Source of the DNA: a virus
Lineage: Duplodnaviria; Heunggongvirae; Uroviricota; Caudoviricetes
IMG/VR virus record: IMGVR_UViG_2718218136_000006
Length of the DNA stretch: 25,778 bases
Strand: one strand, 5' to 3'
The translations under genes and the position numbers were made by a program. Each line of letters starts with the position of its first letter. The first letter of the stretch is position 1. The notes beneath the pieces are model-generated. The model was not told the origin of the DNA. It ran no database searches and saw only the letters and a list, made by a program, of their open reading frames with translations. Positions 4,080 through 25,778 of this stretch are shown here, one piece after another.

Positions 4080-4467
4080 AACCCCCACCTCGCAGATGCG
4101 GGCGCTGTGTAATGGAAACAAAAAATGGCCACCAGCGGCCCGTAAAAAACACCCCGTCAAAAGCACCGGCATCCGCAGATGCCCTTTGCGTGGCGTTATT
4201 TGATGCGCGCCAGATGTGGCGCAAAGAAATGAAATAAGCCTTATCGAAAATTAAGGTTAATTTGATGATTTAAACCACTTCTGAAGCTTAGTAGTATGAA
4301 CATGTCCCCAGAAGGGGCCAATACTTATTATTCTTCATGGACTTTGTCCCGCGGTCTTAATCCGACGACCGCGCTACTTTTCACCCTCTCGCAAATTGCT
4401 ATCTAAAGGACGTTGTCCCACGAGTATTCCTGGATGCTCGTGTCTTTTTTTGTCCTGAGAAAGGAAT

Positions 4468-4856: not shown

Positions 4857-4931
<75 letters not shown>

Positions 4932-4934
4932 ATA

Positions 4935-5010
<76 letters not shown>

Positions 5011-7076: not shown

Positions 7077-7963
7077 GATGCCTCCAAGTTTATAAGTACA
7101 AGAGGTTATATCCACATAGAGACAAAAATATTAATCTTAAAAATATTTATTTCACGCCGTATATTTGTTTGTTTTATGCGCAGGCACAATGACTTTTATT
7201 TATTGTTATGCATATAATCAAATAAGTGATTGTTTTTTGCTCTTCAGATTCAGCAGGCAAAATGCATAAGGGCTGAAAGTTCTCGCATATAATACCTAAT
7301 TTACTATCACTATATTCTAAGCACTTACCAGGTGATTAGGAACGGAACCCAGTACCGTGCGAATTTTAATTATGTGCTGGGACCAAACGGTCTGAAATGT
7401 CTTCATTGGTGACGATGATTACTCTTACTTTTTGATTTTAATATTCCGGCAATAATTTTAATAAAAATCTGTTTTAACTCTGCATTTTGCTGATTCTCCG
7501 AAGAAACTATCCATCTCTACGAGGAGATCAAATGTCGTTTCAAATCAGTATGATGAGTATAAAAATCATGCCATAAATAGAAAACTAATTCGTCTGTATA
7601 GCAGTAATATTTCTGAAAATTAGTAGGATACTGTGGTAAAGAAATTCATTTCCAAGTAATTGGTAAACGCATTTGATTTGATTTTTTGTATGGGCTGTAC
7701 TGGCTAAATAACATCCGATACTTGCCAGCACTAGCGATTGCTATTGATGAGAACAATAGTGGCATCCGGCAAAGCATTTTGTAGGGGGGTATCAAGCGGT
7801 GCTAACGCATTGCGGTAAAAATTCTGTCACACTTGGCGAGCAGGCATAGAGATGATCTCATTGAATTGGTTGCAATCACAAAACACTATGCCTGCCTTTT
7901 CTATTCGCCCATTGCTGGGGAGTCCACAGCACTACTGCAGCTTTTTAGTACGATGAACAGCTA

Positions 7964-8087
7964 TTAAGTAATTTCAGAGGTATCTATCACTTTCTCAGGA
8001 GTTGTAGATAACAATTCTTTCATACGCTGATCTTCGGGAGCACGAGAAGACAGGTGTTCTAAAAACTCACGCCATTGACGCTTTGCA
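7964..8087 (-). pseudogene. orphaned 3' end (37 codons plus stop) of the GHKL ATPase gene, cut off by IS10
   Basis: Reading across the 9-bp duplication, the ATPase frame continues without a stop for 37 codons (QWREFLEHLSSRAPEDQRMKELLSTTPEKVIDTSEIT) to TAA at 7964-7966. Confidence 0.7.
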
Positions 8088-9416
8088 CTGAGAGATCCCC
8101 TCATAATTTCCCCAAAGCGTAACCATGTGTGAATAAATTTTGAGCTAGTAGGGTTGCAGCCACGAGTAAGTCTTCCCTTGTTATTGTGTAGCCAGAATGC
8201 CGCAAAACTTCCATGCCTAAGCGAACTGTTGAGAGTACGTTTCGATTTCTGACTGTGTTAGCCTGGAAGTGCTTGTCCCAACCTTGTTTCTGAGCATGAA
8301 CGCCCGCAAGCCAACATGTTAGTTGAAGCATCAGGGCGATTAGCAGCATGATATCAAAACGCTCTGAGCTGCTCGTTCGGCTATGGCGTAGGCCTAGTCC
8401 GTAGGCAGGACTTTTCAAGTCTCGGAAGGTTTCTTCAATCTGCATTCGCTTCGAATAGATATTAACAAGTTGTTTGGGTGTTCGAATTTCAACAGGTAAG
8501 TTAGTTGCTAGAACCCATGGCTCCTTTGCCGACGCTGAGTAGATTTTAGGTGACGGGTGGTGACAATGAGTCCGTGTCGAGCGCTGATTTTTTCGGCCTT
8601 TAGAGCGAGATTTATACAATAGAATTTGGCATGAGATTGGATTGCTTTTAGTCAGCCTCTTATAGCCTAAAGTCTTTGAGTGACTAGATGACATATCATG
8701 TAAGTTGCTGATAGGTTTCCAGTTTTCCGCTCCTAGGTCTGCATATTGTACTTTTCCTCTTACTCGACTTAACCAGTACCAACCCAGCTTCTCAACGGAT
8801 TTATACCATGGCACTTTAAAGCCAGCATCACTGACAATGAGCGGTGTGGTGTTACTCGGTAGAATGCTCGCAAGGTCGGCTAGAAATTGGTCATGAGCTT
8901 TCTTTGAACATTGCTCTGAAAGCGGGAACGCTTTCTCATAAAGAGTAACAGAACGACCGTGTAGTGCGACTGAAGCTCGCAATACCATAAGTCGTTTTTG
9001 CTCACGAATATCAGACCAGTCAACAAGTACAATGGGCATCGTATTGCCCGAACAGATAAAGCTAGCATGCCAACGGTATACAGCGAGTCGCTCTTTGTGG
9101 AGGTGACGATTACCTAACAATCGGTCGATTCGTTTGATGTTATGTTTTGTTCTCGCTTTGGTTGGCAGGTTACGGCCAAGTTCGGTAAGAGTGAGAGTTT
9201 TACAGTCAAGTAATGCGTGGCAAGCCAACGTTAAGCTGTTGAGTCGTTTTAAGTGTAATTCGGGGCAGAATTGGTAAAGAGAGTCGTGTAAAATATCGAG
9301 TTCGCACATCTTGTTGTCTGATTATTGATTTTTCGCGAAACCATTTGATCATATGACAAGATGTGTATCTACCTTAACTTAATGATTTTGATAAAAATCA
9401 TTAGGGGATTCATCAG
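8088..9416 (-). mobile_element. IS10 copy 1 (1329 bp), flanked by 9-bp direct duplication CGCTTTGCA (8079-8087 and 9417-9425)
   Basis: Ends CTGAGAGATCCCCTCATAATTTCCCC (inside end) and ...TCATTAGGGGATTCATCAG (outside end) recalled as IS10 termini; exact 9-bp flanking repeat read from sequence. Confidence 0.95.
8101..9309 (-). CDS. IS10 transposase, 402 aa
   Basis: ORF track; protein MCELDILHDSLYQFCPELHLKRLNSL... recalled as the IS10/Tn10 transposase. Confidence 0.95.
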   Translation of the reverse strand: MCELDILHDSLYQFCPELHLKRLNSLTLACHALLDCKTLTLTELGRNLPTKARTKHNIKRIDRLLGNRHLHKERLAVYRWHASFICSGNTMPIVLVDWSDIREQKRLMVLRASVALHGRSVTLYEKAFPLSEQCSKKAHDQFLADLASILPSNTTPLIVSDAGFKVPWYKSVEKLGWYWLSRVRGKVQYADLGAENWKPISNLHDMSSSHSKTLGYKRLTKSNPISCQILLYKSRSKGRKNQRSTRTHCHHPSPKIYSASAKEPWVLATNLPVEIRTPKQLVNIYSKRMQIEETFRDLKSPAYGLGLRHSRTSSSERFDIMLLIALMLQLTCWLAGVHAQKQGWDKHFQANTVRNRNVLSTVRLGMEVLRHSGYTITREDLLVAATLLAQNLFTHGYALGKL

Positions 9417-11284
9417 CGCTTTGCATCAGACAGAAGGTCATCCCAAGTTAATGTATACATTTCTTGTTCTCTCAATGTTTTCAGTTTCATATTTAACGTT
9501 GCATTTCTCTTTAAAAAATCATCAGCAACTAGATAACCGGAAACTCGCTTGAATGGACTTCCTGTTGCAGAGTCTAAATAAACTCTGAAAGTATTAACAT
9601 ACTCCTCAAAGCGATTGATGTGATCTTTATCTATTTTCAGCCCTGGCCTCATGAATTCAAGTACAAGCAAATGTTCACCACTTGAAAGAACTAAGTCAAC
9701 CCTTCCTTTAAAGCTTGGATCGTGTTCAATGTCTGATTCTTTTGCTGCTTCTCTAGCGATATGCTGGACATTTTTCTCAATAGCATAAGTCTCCCATTTT
9801 GGAGCTATCAGCCAAGGATTCTTCGCAATATAGTCTCGAACAGCATTTTCTAATTCTTTAGTGCGTATTCTAGTCTCAAGACCACTTATAGTATCAAGCT
9901 TAGCTTTAACTGATTCTGCTGTGTGTAAAGCCTGAATTGTATTTGCTTCGATCAATATCTCAAGCAATTTCGTTTCATCCATATCAGGAACGGAAGCAAC
10001 GCTTCTTATAAGCTCTTTTAGACGCCCTCCCTCCCATGCAGTGAGGATAGAGTTGCCTATATGCCTAAATTGCTCTGCACCGATTTGTTGGATTGATGCA
10101 ATTCGTTTCAAAGCCATTATAACCGTTTTTTTCTCTACACCTAGTTTATCTAGCCTACTTCTGAAATCATCAATTTTACTTTCAATCAGTTTGGTTTTTT
10201 CATCTGCCCGCCGATCTTTCCAGATTTTTAATAATTCGCGAACACGTTTCTGTCCCCACTCTTCTAATTTGGCAAGGTGGTGACTACTCCAATTCAATCT
10301 TTGTCGTTCAGTAGAAATCACATCATCATTAAACTCATCCAAATAATCAGCAATTACAGCCCCTGTCATATATTCAGGACCATTTTGACTTGGCAACCCT
10401 CCAGTCAAGTTAAACATAAACGGCCTTTGTGCTAATTTTTTGTGAGCGTAAATCGAGATACCTTGCAACTCATCATCCTTGATTGTTTCTTTTAAGAAAA
10501 ACACTCTCCATTTTATCTCATAACCATCAACGATTTCTTTTCCATACCCCAAACTGTCAATCTCCGTAAGAGAATCAGGTTTTTCATCTACAGTATAATC
10601 TTTTGGAAAACTATATTCTGCAGTGGCAAGAAAATTTTCGACTGGCATGGGGGTATTATTAATACGAACTAAAAATTCATCGCCGCCAGAATTGATCGCA
10701 AACCTTCTCGCCATAGATGTAGCAAAAGAAGACTCATTTAACAATCTATTTATTTTCAATGACTTAAGTGTTACTGTTGTTCCATGATTTTCTTTTTCTA
10801 ATTCTGAAGGGCCTGTGCGGAAGGTCACATCAATAGCCATGCTTTCAGTTTTAACGTAGTCATCTGACGATCTAATCTTATTTATATCCAAAGTAAAACT
10901 AGTTTTTTCACCTGTTTCTTGGCTAGTAGTACAAATTTCTATAATCTCAGCAATACCAAAACCAGCAAACTTTCCGATACCTTTTCTTCCCATTAAGTCT
11001 CGATTGAATAATTTCGACTTCGCTACAGGATTATCTTTCCTTTTATCAAAACCAACCGTAAGAAATTTCTTTTGACATTCTTCAAATGTCATTCCAATAC
11101 CATTGTCTTTTATAACAATAGTTCTATTTTCATGCGTGGGTAGTGTAATATTAACTTCGGTTGCATCCGCGTCCCAAGCATTAGAAACCATTTCAGCTAT
11201 TGCTGCTGTTGGACTTTGATACATTTGAATACCTAAATGATCAATTATCCTACCATGAAAATTTAGAAATAGTTTATTATCCAT
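9413..11284 (-). CDS. MORC/MutL-like GHKL ATPase (HATPase_c-type N-terminus) with large C-terminal region; truncated to 623 aa by IS10, original about 660 aa
   Basis: Bergerat-fold motifs read directly: EMVSNAWDA (N box), IKDNGIGM (G1), GRKGIGKFAGFG (G2). ATG 11282-11284 overlaps MTase stop by 8 nt. Stop codon 9413-9415 lies inside the IS10 end. Confidence 0.75.
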   Translation of the reverse strand: MDNKLFLNFHGRIIDHLGIQMYQSPTAAIAEMVSNAWDADATEVNITLPTHENRTIVIKDNGIGMTFEECQKKFLTVGFDKRKDNPVAKSKLFNRDLMGRKGIGKFAGFGIAEIIEICTTSQETGEKTSFTLDINKIRSSDDYVKTESMAIDVTFRTGPSELEKENHGTTVTLKSLKINRLLNESSFATSMARRFAINSGGDEFLVRINNTPMPVENFLATAEYSFPKDYTVDEKPDSLTEIDSLGYGKEIVDGYEIKWRVFFLKETIKDDELQGISIYAHKKLAQRPFMFNLTGGLPSQNGPEYMTGAVIADYLDEFNDDVISTERQRLNWSSHHLAKLEEWGQKRVRELLKIWKDRRADEKTKLIESKIDDFRSRLDKLGVEKKTVIMALKRIASIQQIGAEQFRHIGNSILTAWEGGRLKELIRSVASVPDMDETKLLEILIEANTIQALHTAESVKAKLDTISGLETRIRTKELENAVRDYIAKNPWLIAPKWETYAIEKNVQHIAREAAKESDIEHDPSFKGRVDLVLSSGEHLLVLEFMRPGLKIDKDHINRFEEYVNTFRVYLDSATGSPFKRVSGYLVADDFLKRNATLNMKLKTLREQEMYTLTWDDLLSDAKR

Positions 11285-12325
11285 AATCCGCCTCGTTTTT
11301 AGTTATATGTTCTTTGATAAGTTCAGCATGATGCTTAATGAATTCAGGGGGCAATGCATTCCCTATCATCAAAGCAGCCTTGTCTTTACCAAATTGAATA
11401 GGAAAATAGTAATCACTCGGAAAAGTTTGTAATAATGCAGCCTCTCGAAGAGTTATTGCTCTATCTTGTTCAGGATGTAAAAAACGACCTTTTGAAGGAT
11501 TAGTACATCCACTCGTAATAGTTGGAGCTACATCATCCCACCTCATACGACCGTAAACATCGCGAAAACCATTTGGATATCGTTTATGACATGGCAGCCA
11601 ATACTCGTAAGGAAGTTGAGAGCGGCTTCCCCCATCCTTAGGAATAAGACTTATAATTTTTTTAACCTTCTCAGTTCTTCTTTCTAATATATTGTGCAGC
11701 GGATCATTGCTATTTTCAGGTCGAGCCAAATGGCCTATTGCATCGCGCACAGTTATTAAATTACTATTTTTTTGAGCACGAGTAAGCTCTCCGTATCGCG
11801 AAGCAAGTAGTACCATGCGCTTACGTCTTTGTGGCACACCAAATTTACTAGCATCTTCAATTAAAACTGAATTATCATCGATATGATAACCCAATTTCTT
11901 AAGCTCCGAAGTAAACATGTTTATTCGTTCGTCAAATGCCAAAGCTGGTACATTTTCAACCATTACAACTTTTGGAAAAAAGACTTTAACAAAATCTAAA
12001 AAATTAAAAATAAGTTCATTTCTCTCATCAAAGACAGCTACTGTTTTATTTTTTGTTCTTAACGAAGAAAATCCTTGACATGGTGGACAACCTGCCAACA
12101 AATCCAGTTCACCTTGCTGAATTTTTAATTGTTTCATTAATTCATCTGGTGATATATTTTTATATCCCCATTTATTAAGTTAACATCCGGATGGTTGATT
12201 CTATAGGTTTCAGATACAATAGCTTCTTTTTCGATTGCTGATATGACATCAAAGCCAGCCATTTTTAGACCAACTGTCAAACCACCAGCGCCACAAAAAA
12301 GATCAATTGCTTTCATTTTATGCAT
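11277..12325 (-). pseudogene. Dcm-family DNA (cytosine-5) methyltransferase, split by a -1 frameshift in an A5 run (T5 on plus strand at 12157-12161)
   Basis: 62-aa ORF carries motif I (DLFCGAGG) and GDIK; 286-aa ORF carries motif IV (PCQGFS), ENV, and C-terminal GNALPP. Adding one A restores a continuous GDIKNISPDEL...ELDLLAGCPPCQ reading. Confidence 0.8.
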
Positions 12326-16271: not shown

Positions 16272-16610
16272 ATGGTTCATGAAGATAAAGCGCGTAAAGA
16301 GTTCGCCAGTAGGCTTGCGCTAGCCTGTGAAAACGCTGGTTATGAACAACATGGAAGGCAGGCAGAAATTGCCCGTCGAATGAAATTAACACCAAAAGCG
16401 GTTAGCAAATGGTTTAATGGTGAAACAATTCCTCGCCGAGAGAAATTAAGGGAATTAGCAACACTCATTGGAACAACACCAACCTATCTTTTGGGAGAGG
16501 ATACAGAAGAAAGTGGACAGATACGTTTCTATCAGGAGTTAAATCCAAGACAAAAATCATCATTGACCTTCTGGACGAGCTCCCTGACAGTGAGACAGAT
16601 GAACTTTTAA
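16272..16610 (+). CDS. racR: RacR prophage repressor (XRE-type HTH); 112 aa as read, possibly frameshifted near 16552-16556 with a displaced C-terminal frame to 16689
   Basis: ORF track; HTH GRQAEIARRMKLTPKAVSKWFNG; see findings for the alternative frame. Confidence 0.75.
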   Translation: MVHEDKARKEFASRLALACENAGYEQHGRQAEIARRMKLTPKAVSKWFNGETIPRREKLRELATLIGTTPTYLLGEDTEESGQIRFYQELNPRQKSSLTFWTSSLTVRQMNF

Positions 16611-16765
16611 AAACTCTTGAGGAGAAAAAACAGAAGTACAATGCAATTTACGAAGAGTTAGCACGAAAGAAAAAACAAAAAGCCTCTTAAACCAGCATAA
16701 ATCCGGTAGCGTCCCCCTCCGGGTTTGTGCTTCACTTTATCCCGTCTCATTTTTTTATACATAAA

Positions 16766-19053: not shown

Positions 19054-21654
19054 ATGAGCACAAAACCACTCTTCCTGTTACGGAAAGCGAAAAAATCATC
19101 CGGTGAACCTGACGTCGTCCTGTGGGCAAGCAACGATTTTGAATCGACCTGTGCCACTCTGGACTACCTGATCGTTAAGTCAGGTAAAAAACTGAGCAGC
19201 TATTTTAAAGCTGTTGCCACGAATTTTCCTGTCGTTAATGACCTGCCCGCTGAAGGTGAGATCGATTTTACCTGGAGTGAACGCTATCAACTCAGCAAAG
19301 ACTCCATGACATGGGAACTAAAACCGGGAGCAGCACCAGACAACGCTCACTATCAAGGCAATACCAACGTCAACGGCGAAGACATGACTGAGATTGAGGA
19401 GAATATGCTACTCCCAATTTCTGGCCAGGAACTGCCCATTCGTTGGCTTGCTCAACACGGCAGCGAAAAACCGGTAACGCACGTTTCACGCGACGGACTC
19501 CAGGCATTACACATTGCTCGGGCTGAAGAACTACCGGCTGTTACTGCCCTGGCTGTTTCCCACAAAACCAGCCTGCTCGACCCGCTGGAAATTCGCGAAC
19601 TCCACAAACTGGTTCGTGACACTGACAAAGTTTTCCCTAATCCTGGTAATTCAAACCTGGGACTGATAACTGCTTTTTTCGAAGCATACCTGAACGCTGA
19701 CTACACCGATCGAGGACTGCTGACAAAAGAGTGGATGAAGGGTAATCGTGTTTCACACATCACTCGCACGGCTTCCGGTGCTAATGCTGGCGGCGGAAAC
19801 CTCACCGATCGCGGCGAAGGTTTCGTACACGATCTGACGTCACTGGCGCGCGACGTAGCCACTGGCGTACTGGCCCGTTCAATGGATCTGGACATCTATA
19901 ACCTTCATCCGGCACACGCTAAACGCATTGAGGAAATTATCGCTGAAAATAAACCGCCCTTTTCTGTTTTCCGCGACAAATTCATCACCATGCCTGGCGG
20001 GCTGGATTATTCCCGCGCCATCGTGGTTGCGTCCGTAAAAGAAGCACCAATTGGGATCGAGGTCATCCCCGCGCACGTCACTGAATATCTGAACAAAGTA
20101 CTGACTGAAACCGATCATGCCAACCCTGATCCGGAAATCGTGGATATTGCCTGCGGTCGCTCCTCTGCCCCGATGCCGCAGCGAGTAACAGAAGAAGGAA
20201 AACAGGATGATGAAGAAAAACCGCAACCATCTGGAACAACGGCAGTTGAACAGGGAGAGGCTGAAACAATGGAACAGGACGCAACTGAACATCATCAGGA
20301 CACGCAGCCGCTGGATGCTCAGTCACAGGTAAATTCTGTTGATGCGAAATATCAGGAACTGCGGGCAGAACTCCATGAAGCCCGGAAAAACATTCCATCA
20401 AAAAATCCTGTCGATGCCGATAAATTGCTTGCTGCATCACGTGGTGAATTTGTTGACGGAATTAGCGACCCGAACGATCCGAAATGGGTAAAGGGGATCC
20501 AGACTCGCGATTGTGTGTACCAGAACCAGCCAGAAACGGAAAAAACCAGCCCGGATATGAATCAACCTGAGCCAGTAGTGCAACAGGAACCGGAAATAGC
20601 CTGCAATGCCTGCGGCCAGACTGGCGGGGATAACTGCCCTGACTGTGGTGCGGTGATGGGCGACGCAACATACCAGGAAACATTCGATGAAGAGAGTCAG
20701 GTTGAAGCTAAGGAAAATGATCCGGAGGAAATGGAAGGCGCTGAACATCCGCACAATGAGAATGCTGGCAGCGATCCGCATCGCGATTGCAGTGATGAAA
20801 CTGGCGAAGTCGCAGATCCCGTAATCGTAGAAGACATAGAGCCAGGTATTTATTACGGAATTTCGAATGAGAATTACCACGCGGGTCCCGGTATCAGTAA
20901 GTCTCAGCTCGATGACATTGCTGATACTCCGGCACTATATTTGTGGCGTAAAAATGCCCCCGTGGACACCACAAAGACAAAAACGCTCGATTTAGGAACT
21001 GCTTTCCACTGCCGGGTACTTGAACAGGAAGAATTCAGTAACCGCTTTATCGTAGCACCTGAATTTAACCGCCGTACAAACGCCGGAAAAGAAGAAGAGA
21101 AAGCGTTTCTGATGGAATGCGCAAGCACAGGAAAAACGGTTATCACTGCGGAAGAAGGCCGGAAAATTGAACTCATGTATCAAAGCGTTATGGCTTTGCC
21201 GCTGGGGCAATGGCTTGTTGAAAGCGCCGGACACGCTGAATCATCAATTTACTGGGAAGATCCTGAAACAGGAATTTTGTGTCGGTGCCGTCCGGACAAA
21301 ATTATCCCTGAATTTCACTGGATCATGGACGTGAAAACTACGGCGGATATTCAACGATTCAAAACCGCTTATTACGACTACCGCTATCACGTTCAGGATG
21401 CATTCTACAGTGACGGTTATGAAGCACAGTTTGGAGTGCAGCCAACTTTCGTTTTTCTGGTTGCCAGCACAACTATTGAATGCGGACGTTATCCGGTTGA
21501 AATTTTCATGATGGGCGAAGAAGCAAAACTGGCAGGTCAACAGGAATATCACCGCAATCTGCGAACCCTGTCTGACTGCCTGAATACCGATGAATGGCCA
21601 GCTATTAAGACATTATCACTGCCCCGCTGGGCTAAGGAATATGCAAATGACTAA
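19054..21654 (+). CDS. recE: RecE exonuclease VIII, 866 aa, intact
   Basis: ORF track; length and sequence recalled as Rac RecE; 3' end overlaps recT start. Confidence 0.95.
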
Positions 21655-22512: not shown

Positions 22513-22707
22513 ATGAGATATGACAATGTTAAACCATGTCCATTTTGTGGTTGTCCATCAGTAACGGTGAAAGTCATTTCAGGATATTACCGAGCGAAGT
22601 GTAACGGATGCGAATCCCGAACCGGTTATGGTGGAAGTGAAAGAGAAGCACTCGAAAGATGGAATAAACGAACCACTGGAAATAATAACGGAGGTGTTCA
22701 TGTATAA
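22513..22707 (+). CDS. ralR: RalR (Lar) restriction-alleviation protein, 64 aa
   Basis: ORF track 22474..22707 trimmed to ATG 22513 (MRYDNVKPCPFCGC...); Cys-rich zinc-ribbon-like pattern. Confidence 0.8.
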   Translation: MRYDNVKPCPFCGCPSVTVKVISGYYRAKCNGCESRTGYGGSEREALERWNKRTTGNNNGGVHV

Positions 22708-22888
22708 AATTACCGCTACTATTGAAAAGGAAGGTGGCACTCCTACTAACTGGACAAGATATTCAAAATCTAAACTAACGAAATCAGAATGCGAAAAAAT
22801 GCTCTCAGGTAAAAAAGAAGCAGGCGTTTCCAGAGAGCAGAAAGTAAAACTGATAAATTTTAATTGCGAGAAACTTCAGTCCTCGTGA
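22700..22888 (+). CDS. ydaC: YdaC, 62 aa
   Basis: ATG 22700 behind GGAGG, overlapping ralR end by 8 nt; ORF track 22628..22888. Confidence 0.65.
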   Translation: MYKITATIEKEGGTPTNWTRYSKSKLTKSECEKMLSGKKEAGVSREQKVKLINFNCEKLQSS

Positions 22889-23204: not shown

Positions 23205-23640
23205 ATGTCTAAATTACCAACAGGTGTCGAGATTAGAGGTAGATACATTCGCATCTGGTTCATGTTTCGAGGAAAACGATGTCGGGAAACATTAAAAGGC
23301 TGGGAGATTACAAACAGTAATATTAAAAAGGCCGGAAATTTAAGAGCGCTGATAGTTCATGAAATAAACTCCGGTGAATTTGAGTATTTAAGACGTTTTC
23401 CCCAGTCCAGCACTGGGGCAAAAATGGTGACAACGAGAGTCATAAAAACGTTCGGAGAGCTTTGTGATATCTGGACAAAAATTAAAGAGACAGAGTTAAC
23501 AACAAACACAATGAAGAAAACGAAATCACAATTAAAAACACTCAGAATAATAATTTGTGAAAGTACCCTGATATCACATATTCGTTATAGCGATATCTTA
23601 AACTACCGGAATGAACTGCTGCATGGAGAAACGCTTTACC
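23205..23640 (+). pseudogene. intR: intR integrase, 5' fragment (145 codons), interrupted by IS10
   Basis: ATG 23205; frame runs into IS10 at 23641 and terminates after 11 IS-encoded codons; arm-binding-type N-terminus. Confidence 0.9.
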
Positions 23641-24969
23641 CTGAGAGATCCCCTCATAATTTCCCCAAAGCGTAACCATGTGTGAATAAATTTTGAGCTA
23701 GTAGGGTTGCAGCCACGAGTAAGTCTTCCCTTGTTATTGTGTAGCCAGAATGCCGCAAAACTTCCATGCCTAAGCGAACTGTTGAGAGTACGTTTCGATT
23801 TCTGACTGTGTTAGCCTGGAAGTGCTTGTCCCAACCTTGTTTCTGAGCATGAACGCCCGCAAGCCAACATGTTAGTTGAAGCATCAGGGCGATTAGCAGC
23901 ATGATATCAAAACGCTCTGAGCTGCTCGTTCGGCTATGGCGTAGGCCTAGTCCGTAGGCAGGACTTTTCAAGTCTCGGAAGGTTTCTTCAATCTGCATTC
24001 GCTTCGAATAGATATTAACAAGTTGTTTGGGTGTTCGAATTTCAACAGGTAAGTTAGTTGCTAGAACCCATGGCTCCTTTGCCGACGCTGAGTAGATTTT
24101 AGGTGACGGGTGGTGACAATGAGTCCGTGTCGAGCGCTGATTTTTTCGGCCTTTAGAGCGAGATTTATACAATAGAATTTGGCATGAGATTGGATTGCTT
24201 TTAGTCAGCCTCTTATAGCCTAAAGTCTTTGAGTGACTAGATGACATATCATGTAAGTTGCTGATAGGTTTCCAGTTTTCCGCTCCTAGGTCTGCATATT
24301 GTACTTTTCCTCTTACTCGACTTAACCAGTACCAACCCAGCTTCTCAACGGATTTATACCATGGCACTTTAAAGCCAGCATCACTGACAATGAGCGGTGT
24401 GGTGTTACTCGGTAGAATGCTCGCAAGGTCGGCTAGAAATTGGTCATGAGCTTTCTTTGAACATTGCTCTGAAAGCGGGAACGCTTTCTCATAAAGAGTA
24501 ACAGAACGACCGTGTAGTGCGACTGAAGCTCGCAATACCATAAGTCGTTTTTGCTCACGAATATCAGACCAGTCAACAAGTACAATGGGCATCGTATTGC
24601 CCGAACAGATAAAGCTAGCATGCCAACGGTATACAGCGAGTCGCTCTTTGTGGAGGTGACGATTACCTAACAATCGGTCGATTCGTTTGATGTTATGTTT
24701 TGTTCTCGCTTTGGTTGGCAGGTTACGGCCAAGTTCGGTAAGAGTGAGAGTTTTACAGTCAAGTAATGCGTGGCAAGCCAACGTTAAGCTGTTGAGTCGT
24801 TTTAAGTGTAATTCGGGGCAGAATTGGTAAAGAGAGTCGTGTAAAATATCGAGTTCGCACATCTTGTTGTCTGATTATTGATTTTTCGCGAAACCATTTG
24901 ATCATATGACAAGATGTGTATCTACCTTAACTTAATGATTTTGATAAAAATCATTAGGGGATTCATCAG
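23641..24969 (-). mobile_element. IS10 copy 2 (1329 bp), flanked by 9-bp direct duplication CGCTTTACC (23632-23640 and 24970-24978)
   Basis: Same termini as copy 1; 9-bp flanking repeat read from sequence; same orientation as copy 1. Confidence 0.95.
23654..24862 (-). CDS. IS10 transposase, 402 aa
   Basis: ORF track; protein identical to the copy-1 transposase. Confidence 0.95.
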   Translation of the reverse strand: MCELDILHDSLYQFCPELHLKRLNSLTLACHALLDCKTLTLTELGRNLPTKARTKHNIKRIDRLLGNRHLHKERLAVYRWHASFICSGNTMPIVLVDWSDIREQKRLMVLRASVALHGRSVTLYEKAFPLSEQCSKKAHDQFLADLASILPSNTTPLIVSDAGFKVPWYKSVEKLGWYWLSRVRGKVQYADLGAENWKPISNLHDMSSSHSKTLGYKRLTKSNPISCQILLYKSRSKGRKNQRSTRTHCHHPSPKIYSASAKEPWVLATNLPVEIRTPKQLVNIYSKRMQIEETFRDLKSPAYGLGLRHSRTSSSERFDIMLLIALMLQLTCWLAGVHAQKQGWDKHFQANTVRNRNVLSTVRLGMEVLRHSGYTITREDLLVAATLLAQNLFTHGYALGKL

Positions 24970-25778
24970 CGCTTTACCTGGATAATCCAAGATCCAACAA
25001 AAAAGGAAGAACCGTGCGCACAGTTGATAACTATATCGCCCTGCTCTGTTCGCTGTTACGTTTTGCGTATCAGTCGGGATTTATATCAACCAAACCATTT
25101 GAAGGAGTAAAAAAATTACAGCGAAACAGAATAAAGCCTGATCCGTTATCTAAAACAGAATTCAATGCATTAATGGAAAGTGAAAAAGGACAGAGCCAGA
25201 ACATGTGGAAATTTGCAGTTTACTCAGGACTTCGTCACGGGGAACTGGCAGCTCTGGCGTGGGAGGATGTGGATCTCGAAAAGGGAATAGTGAATGTCAG
25301 AAGAAACCTGACGATACTTGATATGTTCGGTCCCCCAAAAACAAATGCCGGGATCCGGACAGTAACACTACTGCAGCCTGCTCTTGAAGCACTGAAGGAG
25401 CAATACAAACTGACCGGGCATCATCGCAAAAGCGAAATCACCTTTTATCATCGGGAGTACGGCAGAACCGAAAAGCAAAAACTGCATTTTGTTTTCATGC
25501 CCAGGGTGTGTAACGGAAAACAAAAACCTTATTACTCGGTAAGCAGTTTGGGGGCAAGGTGGAATGCAGCAGTAAAACGTGCTGGTATTCGCCGCCGTAA
25601 TCCGTACCATACGCGGCATACTTTTGCCTGCTGGCTGTTGACGGCAGGAGCGAACCCGGCATTTATAGCCAGCCAAATGGGGCATGAAACTGCGCAGATG
25701 GTGTATGAAATTTACGGTATGTGGATTGATGACATGAACGACGAACAGATAGCCATGTTGAATGCGCGGTTATCATAG
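24970..25778 (+). pseudogene. intR: intR integrase, 3' fragment with tyrosine-recombinase catalytic region
   Basis: Frame resumes in register after the duplicated 9 bp (CTG at 24978-24980); catalytic-region motifs HTRHTFACWLL and ...EIYGMW; stop at 25776-25778. Confidence 0.9.

Follow-up and report, generated by a model that had tools for sequence, protein, structure and literature searches.

R.HgiDII has been described as a GHKL ATPase domain followed by an unassigned C-terminal domain (PMC2441816), and in this family the methylase gene is indispensable as long as the restriction enzyme is active, as is the case for BbrII of B. breve (PMC5514069). Here we analysed a stretch of 25,778 nucleotides (the window) that is part of a Rac-like cryptic prophage adjoining trkG in an E. 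coli ST359 O177:H21 strain from Leiden (CP016546), which is known for its mcr-1::IS10R allele (PMC5456074). A restriction-modification operon sits in the nin region of this prophage and its restriction gene (R) is interrupted by IS10, a locus that the paper describing the strain (PMC5456074) does not mention. The reading that we favour, with a probability of about 0.8, is that cut-and-paste transposition of IS10 truncated R at a recurrent target, and that the enzyme is most likely inactive or unstable, with the methylase (M) of the M-to-R operon a functional orphan.

A restriction gene of the HgiDII/BbrUII kind

The truncated gene occupies positions 9413-11284 on the minus strand (623 codons) and its predicted product comprises a MORC-like GHKL ATPase, a coiled coil and a PD-(D/E)xK-like nuclease domain. 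The earlier note, made from the sequence alone, had called it a GHKL ATPase. The GHKL domain is indeed present (Pfam HATPase_c_3, residues 25-169), and the protein can be named more specifically as a homologue of the HgiDII/BbrUII restriction enzymes. The NCBIfam model for the BbrUII/HgiDII family (NF050001) matches residues 13-634 with E = 2.5e-89 and 300.6 bits, which does not reach the equivalog cut-off of 550 bits and thus marks a homologue over nearly the full length rather than an equivalog; the recognition sequence may therefore differ from that of HgiDII, and cleavage is predicted from family membership. PADLOC called the truncated gene REase_II. As in R.HgiDII and R.BbrUII (BbrII), the family model matches along the protein, an N-terminal GHKL ATPase is combined with a distinct, family-specific C-terminal domain, and a C5 methylase gene lies adjacent and upstream; unlike them, this homologue scores below the equivalog cut-off and belongs to a system located in a Rac-like prophage, in its nin region.

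The GHKL domain is followed by an S5-fold transducer domain, the arrangement of MORC/paraMORC proteins. On the basis of their described architecture, the protein can be likened to the prokaryotic MORC/paraMORC GHKL ATPases of restriction-modification systems, especially paraMORC3 (PMC2292703), although the E-D-ExK signature is incomplete here. A structure model and fold searches indicate that the C-terminal domain has the PD-(D/E)xK alpha-beta-beta-beta-alpha-beta core fold. Neighbouring predicted strands carry D530 and E543, both of them invariant, while the K position is taken by the nearly invariant M545, which is followed by an invariant R546. The lysine expected in ExK is thus replaced by methionine (E543-F-M545), and the catalytic assignment is incomplete. 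The domain models as a PD-(D/E)xK fold like that of the Shedu (SduA) nuclease domain (DUF4263), but with only about 10% identity and, in contrast to Shedu, in the context of a methylase-linked restriction system; Pfam DUF4263 itself was not matched in the protein.

The gene for the cognate C5 cytosine methyltransferase (11277-12316, minus strand) lies upstream of R and overlaps it by 8 nt. This layout, including the 8-nt overlap, is kept in homologues of 59% and 51% identity, and so the adjacent C5 methylase of the HgiDII/BbrUII family is found here and beside two distant homologues. No Vsr gene or remnant was found downstream of R; such a gene follows the Paraburkholderia homologue.

Anatomy of the insertion and reconstruction of the intact gene

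The insertion at 8088-9416 on the minus strand is a 1329-bp copy of IS10 (IS10R; annotated as ISVsa5), with its inside end at 8088 and its outside end at 9416. The inside (left) end begins CTGAGAGATCCCC and the outside (right) end finishes with GGGGATTCATCAG, and the two form imperfect terminal inverted repeats, about 23 bp long and starting with CTGA, in which 17 of 23 terminal bases agree. The transposase gene (8101-9309, minus strand; 402 aa, RefSeq WP_001339197.1, Pfam DDE_Tnp_1 E = 1.5e-24) has the same orientation as R, and its start at 9309 is nucleotide 108 from the outside end at 9416, as expected of IS10. The copy is 100% identical to plasmid-borne IS10/ISVsa5 copies, including the one in mcr-1 on the IncX4 plasmid of the same strain (NZ_CP016550.1).

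The earlier note had proposed that this IS10 is a secondary insertion flanked by an exact 9-bp duplication, that the reading frame stops at a TGA inside its outside end, and that excision would restore 37 codons of an ancestral gene of about 660. All of this was borne out. The duplication, CGCTTTGCA, is found at 8079-8087 and again at 9417-9425; two 9-mers at fixed positions would match exactly by chance with a probability of 4^-9, or about 4e-6. Its core, GCTTTGC, has one mismatch among the six specified bases of the IS10 target consensus GCTNAGC (as quoted in PMC2744996), and the duplicated target thus resembles NGCTNAGCN, as is typical of IS10. The 623-aa open reading frame ends in DAKR followed by TGA at 9413-9415, within the outside end. 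Since both ends of IS10 begin CTGA, an insertion in this frame creates CGC-TGA and hence a clean truncation of 623 residues with no foreign residues added.

When 8088-9425 was deleted in silico and the sequence re-translated, the frame continued for 37 extra codons (QWREFLEHLSSRAPEDQRMKELLSTTPEKVIDTSEIT) to a TAA at 7964-7966, giving a protein of exactly 660 residues. The orphaned 3' end of the gene (7964-8087, minus strand), which holds codons 624-660 with the TAA and includes the left duplication copy, matches the uninterrupted gene of EC12 and CH4797 with 100% identity, and R carries no further mutation relative to intact alleles. The reconstructed 1001-bp junction matched 18 complete E. 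coli chromosomes over its full length at 99.9-100% identity (100.0% in 12 of the 18), and the existence of this empty site shows that the insertion is secondary. In the three of these 18 genomes whose annotation tables were read, the intact gene is a 1983-nt CDS for a 660-aa protein, WP_029402337.1. CH4797, the nearest relative found, is identical to the window over 7.2 kb except for the insertion sequence and one base.

It can be seen from the homologues that the lost tail is a conserved part of the protein. The proposal would have been contradicted by intact homologues that end at the current stop, but all 118 full-length homologues (identities down to about 48%) extend at least to residue 645. 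Residues 624-645 rank among the best conserved of the protein, and W625, R635, P637, D639 and R641, all lost with the tail, are invariant among the homologues. In a structure model of a 91%-identical Klebsiella homologue (P0001), which stood in for the 660-aa protein and shares its numbering through residue 641, the cut falls midway along the last long predicted helix (614-635, pLDDT about 85) of the C-terminal nuclease-like domain. Since the cut lies mid-helix and removes five invariant residues, the 623-aa enzyme is most likely inactive or unstable. Even when truncated, however, the C-terminal domain is given a confident fold by AlphaFold (pLDDT 86.5), so that the model does not by itself show destabilisation. 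The C-terminus is also lost from another allele, found on six contigs, in which a frameshift near residue 590 leaves 615 aa.

A second IS10, identical over 1329 bp and in the same orientation, lies at 23641-24969 (minus strand), where it splits the prophage integrase gene intR. It has its own duplication, CGCTTTACC, at 23632-23640 and 24970-24978, and its excision yields a 411-aa integrase, as annotated in EC12. We rejected a composite transposon of the two copies as the origin of the insertion in R, as each of the two is flanked by a 9-bp duplication that differs from that of the other. The chromosome has IS10 matches at about 37 places, against a median of two per genome having any. The insertion in R resembles mcr-1::IS10R of the same strain (PMC5456074) in the identical 1329-bp element, the 9-bp duplication, the near-consensus GCTNAGC target and the immediate stop supplied by CTGA; it differs in that the target is a prophage restriction gene, interrupted 37 codons from its end and hit recurrently in both orientations.

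Recurrence of the insertion and alternative explanations

Three short-read Logan assemblies (ERR1880019, SRR31994478 and SRR13808302) carry IS10 at the same nucleotide of R, with an identical 623-aa product. The junction is GCAAAGCG joined to CTGATGAATCC in two cases and, in one, GCAAAGCG joined to CTGAGAGATCC, the inside end, denoting the opposite orientation. Besides the window, at least three samples thus have IS10 at this nucleotide, with both orientations represented, which makes it a recurrent IS10 target and not a one-off. ERR1880019 has the same junction as the window and is identical to it over 3.6 kb except for a six-base run and a whole methylase gene. Two of the three assemblies, L012 and L013, have a whole methylase gene, and L013 is otherwise identical to the window; the contig of the third covers only the last 255 codons of the methylase. 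A whole methylase in L012 and L013 is equally compatible with a truncated enzyme that is still active and needs protection.

According to the favoured reading, one IS10 copy moved by ordinary cut-and-paste into the near-consensus target GCTTTGC at codons 621-623, duplicating 9 bp, in the gene for a 660-aa enzyme of the HgiDII/BbrUII kind with a MORC-like GHKL ATPase, a helical linker and a C-terminal PD-(D/E)xK-like nuclease domain; loss of the R tail would leave the methylase as a functional orphan. Whether target preference accounts for the recurrence at one nucleotide can be questioned, as selection may have favoured this truncation, for instance a nuclease-dead protein that keeps its ATPase and DNA-binding functions and has a useful role. 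This base received at least two independent insertions, which differ in orientation yet give an identical 623-aa product; the lineage with the inside-end junction has six nucleotide substitutions in R relative to the window, all of them silent; and neither the one perfect GCTNAGC in R (9898) nor three other one-mismatch sites were hit. Against this, the extreme site-specific hot spots of IS10/Tn10 are well known and are influenced by context outside the 6-bp core (PMC2744996, citing Bender & Kleckner 1992), the sample comprises four assemblies, and the frameshift allele of 615 aa ends elsewhere. We consider selection rather unlikely as the explanation.

The state of the methylase gene bears on two further alternatives. 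In the window it is split into pieces of 59 and 286 aa by a 1-nt deletion in a homopolymer: the run at 12157-12161 is T5, compared with T6 in all relatives that were examined at base level, and each of the other 18 complete genomes has the gene as one CDS. This frameshift could reflect either genuine decay or an error of PacBio sequencing. If it is an error, the truncated enzyme might still be active and the system working. The genome is a PacBio RSII-only assembly (PMC5456074), all three indels between the window and EC12 (at 12157, 4314 and 16552) are 1-nt deletions in homopolymers of 5-6 nt, and an Illumina-type assembly with the same IS10 insertion has the homopolymer run intact; the truncation, moreover, keeps 94% of the protein, D530 and E543 included. 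On the other hand, two further 50-kb stretches of the assembly contained no CDS with a frameshift flag, so that a uniform error rate, with none in 100 kb, does not explain three indels in 23 kb. The segment with the five invariant residues is lacking in no natural homologue, and the 615-aa allele suggests that loss of the C-terminus is tolerated or favoured in this gene. An active truncated enzyme in a working system is therefore, in our judgement, improbable.

Alternatively, the order of events could have been reversed, with the methylase frameshift coming first and the insertion in R selected as a rescue from self-attack. Knockout of the R gene as an escape from methylase loss is a classical type II outcome (post-segregational killing), and both genes are broken here, these being the sole two differences from CH4797. 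The same insertion beside a whole methylase in two other assemblies, however, argues that an interrupted R with M intact is the earlier or commoner state, and we regard the reversed order as very unlikely. Finally, although many identical IS10 copies are present in the genome, misplacement of this one by misassembly of a 37-copy repeat was rejected as having a negligible chance, given the exact 9-bp duplication, flanks that are both perfectly collinear with the empty site, and independent short-read assemblies that break exactly at the junction.

The earlier note had also pointed to a promoter reading outward from the outside end, which would transcribe antisense into the ATPase-methylase operon, and here its orientation was corroborated by a match to the antisense RNA-OUT, transcribed from pOUT, as expected at the outside end of IS10 (9302-9371, plus strand; Rfam RF00240, full length 1-70, 98.8 bits against a gathering score of 41). 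This placement on the plus strand means that pOUT is directed towards the truncated gene in the antisense direction. It is documented that pOUT can read outward into neighbouring DNA (PMC2744996, citing Simons 1983), and transcripts running past the 70-nt RNA-OUT would be antisense to the 3' end of R. A simple sigma-70 scan of 7900-9700 returned no promoter, so that pOUT is placed here by the RNA-OUT match and the literature; the same scan returned no terminator-like site on the plus strand, a weak hint that nothing obvious blocks read-through. Since the allele with IS10 in the opposite orientation yields the same protein without antisense transcription from pOUT, such transcription is probably of little consequence for R.

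Meaning for the restriction-modification system

The locus is an ordinary, well-documented kind of biology that would not surprise a specialist. As in orphan methylases that follow the loss of R, the restriction gene is disrupted and M is whole in at least two insertion-bearing assemblies; it differs in that the event has been caught very early, with R otherwise unmutated relative to intact alleles. For users of the reference genome of the Leiden mcr-1::IS10R strain, it is relevant that the IS10 burst, with about 37 chromosomal copies, has also disabled the prophage integrase. The insertion further flags a site that IS10 hits repeatedly in both orientations, and it provides a naturally occurring allele, truncated at the C-terminus, of an HgiDII-type enzyme; the nuclease domain of this family, of unassigned fold in 2008, now models as a Shedu-like PD-(D/E)xK fold.

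It is possible, though on balance unlikely, that codons 621-623 are a recurrent IS10 site favoured by selection, R being switched off repeatedly in multidrug-resistant E. coli with active IS10 while the methylase is kept. Were this so, a selfish restriction-modification module would be turning into an orphan methylase, and the conserved C-terminal 37 residues would be indispensable for the poorly understood HgiDII-type enzymes that combine a MORC-like ATPase with a nuclease. We conclude that the locus is above all a clean and fully reconstructable example of a restriction-modification system dying, with the nuclease gene lost first and the methylase perhaps later.

Anatomy and origin of the IS10 insertion

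Sequence inspection places the IS10 element in the prophage restriction-enzyme (R) gene at 8088-9416 (1329 bp), with a left (inside) end of CTGAGAGATCCCCTCATAATTTC, a right (outside) end that is the reverse complement of CTGATGAATCCCCTAATGATTTT, and terminal inverted repeats that match at 17 of 23 bases. As the earlier note had reported, the element is flanked by an exact 9-bp duplication (CGCTTTGCA, at both 8079-8087 and 9417-9425), and the reading frame of what that note called a GHKL ATPase stops within the outside end, where bases 2-4 of IS10 form a TGA after ...S-D-A-K-R and leave a 623-codon ORF (9413-11284, minus strand). In silico removal of the element and of one of its two flanking 9-bp repeats, followed by re-translation, gave a 660-codon ORF, with 37 additional codons ending in a TAA at 7964-7966. 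The R gene and the transposase gene have the same orientation, so that operon read-through would run into IS10 in the sense direction; in Tn10, such read-through sense transcripts into IS10 are poorly translated.

The 1001-bp reconstructed junction was matched over its full length, at 99.9-100% identity, in 18 complete E. coli chromosomes, and it is interrupted in one genome only, NZ_CP016546.1, the E. coli O177:H21 chromosome from which the window derives. Annotation of the gene in three of the complete genomes (EC12, CH4797 and ET761) gives it 1983 nt and a 660-aa product, an ‘ATP-binding protein’ (WP_029402337.1). These results uphold the proposal that the insertion is secondary and that the ancestral gene had 660 codons. 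CH4797 and the window are identical across 7.2 kb apart from the IS and one base in the adjacent methylase gene, which indicates that the insertion is recent.

The source strain, an ST359 isolate from Leiden whose mcr-1 gene has been inactivated by IS10R, was sequenced on PacBio RSII only (PMC5456074); the paper describing it does not mention the restriction locus. The chromosome matches this IS10 at 37 places, the median being 2 among E. coli genomes with any, and the copy within mcr-1 on the IncX4 plasmid NZ_CP016550.1 is 100% identical to that in the window. A further copy splits a glycyl-radical enzyme gene at about position 1,517,600 of NZ_CP016546.1. We conclude that the strain underwent an IS10 burst. 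The window itself carries a second IS10 (23641-24969; 23632-24978 with its CGCTTTACC duplications), which matches the first at every one of its 1329 bp, has the same orientation and splits the prophage integrase gene intR; excision of this copy restores a 411-aa ORF ending exactly at the last base of the window. The direct IS10 pair brackets 14.2 kb of prophage, and recombination between the copies could delete that stretch. The same truncated integrase product is encoded by GCA_002514385.1 on a 22.5-kb contig, a finding that points to the absence of the R-gene insertion from this relative.

The interrupted gene and its lost C-terminus

Pfam detects only the GHKL ATPase domain of the R protein (residues 25-169). 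The best NCBIfam match is to the BbrUII/HgiDII family of restriction enzymes (E = 2.5e-89; residues 13-634 against positions 9-647 of the 659 in the profile), at a score of 300.6 bits that lies below the 550-bit equivalog cut-off, and two PADLOC models for type II restriction endonucleases also match. R.HgiDII has an N-terminal GHKL domain and a C-terminal domain of unassigned fold (Orlowski and Bujnicki, PMC2441816), and the architecture described for paraMORC-type restriction systems agrees with that of the R protein (Iyer et al., PMC2292703). An AlphaFold model of a 91%-identical Klebsiella homologue had a mean pLDDT of 80.9, and a Foldseek search with the isolated domain matched EndoMS/NucS and N.BspD6I at a probability of 0.99, with weak E-values. 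The invariant D530 and E543 fall on adjacent strands of the model; the canonical lysine position is occupied by M545, next to an invariant R546, and the active-site assignment is therefore incomplete.

The upstream gene (11277-12316, minus strand) overlaps the R gene by 8 nt and encodes a C5 cytosine methylase that is 346 aa long in relatives; its motifs I and IV read DLFCGAGG and GCPPCQGFS. The same methylase-R layout is seen for homologues at 59% and 51% identity, and one of these is also accompanied by a Vsr gene; no Vsr remnant was found in the window downstream of the R gene. On this evidence the truncated gene is assigned as the predicted R gene of a type II operon transcribed from methylase to R. 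The region of approximately 890 bp beyond its natural stop (7077-7963) has no annotated gene and no ORF of more than 49 codons.

A Rac-like cryptic prophage, with trkG and intR at its borders, carries the operon, which has the replication genes on one side and a Q-like antiterminator on the other. The antiterminator is separated from the lysis genes by genes for tRNA-Gly and tRNA-Thr (4857-5010, minus strand). The Rac type I toxin-antitoxin pair is apparently intact, with the RalA antitoxin sRNA (22706-22884, minus strand; Rfam, 220.6 bits) opposite the toxin gene ralR (22513-22707, plus strand). The window recE (19054-21654) is intact and differs from that of EC12 (L005 3437-6037), which is annotated with an internal stop, by two substitutions, at window positions 19274 and 19976.

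The 37-residue tail proved to be conserved in an alignment of 118 full-length homologues with identities down to about 48%. None of the 118 stops at the position of the present stop, the outcome that would have refuted the earlier note's reading by its own criterion, and the earliest C-terminal end is not before query residue 645. Residues 624-645 rank among the best-conserved parts of the protein: W625, R635, P637, D639 and R641 are invariant, Q624, E627, F628 and L629 are conserved at about 90%, and only the last ~15 residues are variable. Profile matches likewise extend past the cut, to residue 646 for PHROG and residue 634 for NCBIfam. In the modelled homologue, two helices span residues 614-635 (pLDDT about 85) and 640-647. 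The junction after residue 623 would bisect the first helix and take away the whole of the second, and the five invariant residues would be lost as well. We infer that the truncated enzyme has probably lost activity or stability; AlphaFold folds the truncated domain confidently too (pLDDT 86.5).

Recurrent insertion at a single nucleotide

Three Logan short-read assemblies likewise encode exactly the 623-aa product of the window, in each case at the end of a contig. ERR1880019 and SRR31994478 have the junction GCAAAGCG|CTGATGAATCC, in the orientation seen in the window, and SRR13808302, with the inside end at the junction (GCAAAGCG|CTGAGAGATCC), has IS10 in the opposite orientation. Both orientations give the same protein because CTGA starts both IS10 ends. 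The SRR13808302 lineage differs from the window by six substitutions in R, all silent, and its flanking genes have diverged; together with the opposite orientation this indicates at least two independent insertions at one base pair. A 621-aa ‘partial’ protein in another assembly terminates at the same place. P0125 (615 aa, six contigs, same 90% cluster) has a frameshift near residue 590 and a different C-terminal truncation, and is read as an independent, predicted inactivating allele of the same restriction gene.

Context-dependent hot spots of IS10 are well known, as described in PMC2744996, and we favour such a hot spot as the probable explanation for the recurrence, in preference to selection for this allele. 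Within the R gene, GCTNAGC occurs once without mismatch (9898) and at four distinct places with one mismatch; the insertion used one of the latter.

The outward promoter pOUT, which the earlier note had expected to transcribe antisense to the operon, is oriented as proposed: RNA-OUT maps to plus-strand positions 9302-9371, so that pOUT faces 9416 and the sequence past it, in antisense to the R gene. RNA-OUT ends 45 nt inside IS10, and no terminator-like site was found after it on the plus strand in a scan of 7900-9700. Reading from pOUT into adjacent DNA, with its activation, is described in PMC2744996. Since the opposite-orientation allele gives the same product without this arrangement, antisense transcription is unlikely to be an important effect of the insertion.

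Homopolymer deletions and the state of the methylase

In the window the methylase is split by a 1-nt deletion into 59-aa and 286-aa pieces, the latter without motif I. The deletion lies in a T run at 12157-12161, which is T5 in the window and T6 in EC12, ET761, CH4797 and two Logan assemblies, and the methylase is a single annotated CDS in all 18 other complete genomes. Two further differences from the EC12 gene are a silent one at 11580 and one at 11996 that alters an amino acid (N108D). As a methylase of this family cannot be dispensed with as long as R is active (PMC5514069), the deletion, if real, would mean that the truncated enzyme is harmless.

We consider the odds roughly even between real decay following loss of R and a PacBio homopolymer consensus error. 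The assembly is PacBio-only, each of the three indels found against EC12 removes one base from a homopolymer, and ERR1880019, which has the same insertion and is otherwise identical over 3.6 kb, has an intact T run, all of which would fit an error; against this, no CDS is flagged as frameshifted in two other 50-kb regions of the same assembly. Whether or not the deletion is real, the combination of R::IS10 and an unbroken methylase gene is the earlier state or the commoner one; this speaks against a scenario in which the insertion was the rescue of a methylase-deficient cell.

A repressor-like helix-turn-helix gene (16272-16690, plus strand) is annotated as frameshifted, with a deletion at about 16552 (A5 in the window, A6 in EC12). 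Silencing of the ydaS/ydaT toxins in K-12 depends on the Rac repressor, and the frameshift would be notable if real; it may be another consensus error. The third homopolymer deletion of this prophage, at 4314 (G4, against G5 in EC12), lies in the intergenic stretch that separates the holin gene from the tRNA genes.

The observation in the earlier note is thus real, and its interpretation is supported and extended. The event adds a further example to a familiar class, in which an insertion knocks out a restriction gene, and brings as a modest extra a target site that is used repeatedly and a naturally truncated allele in an under-studied enzyme family.
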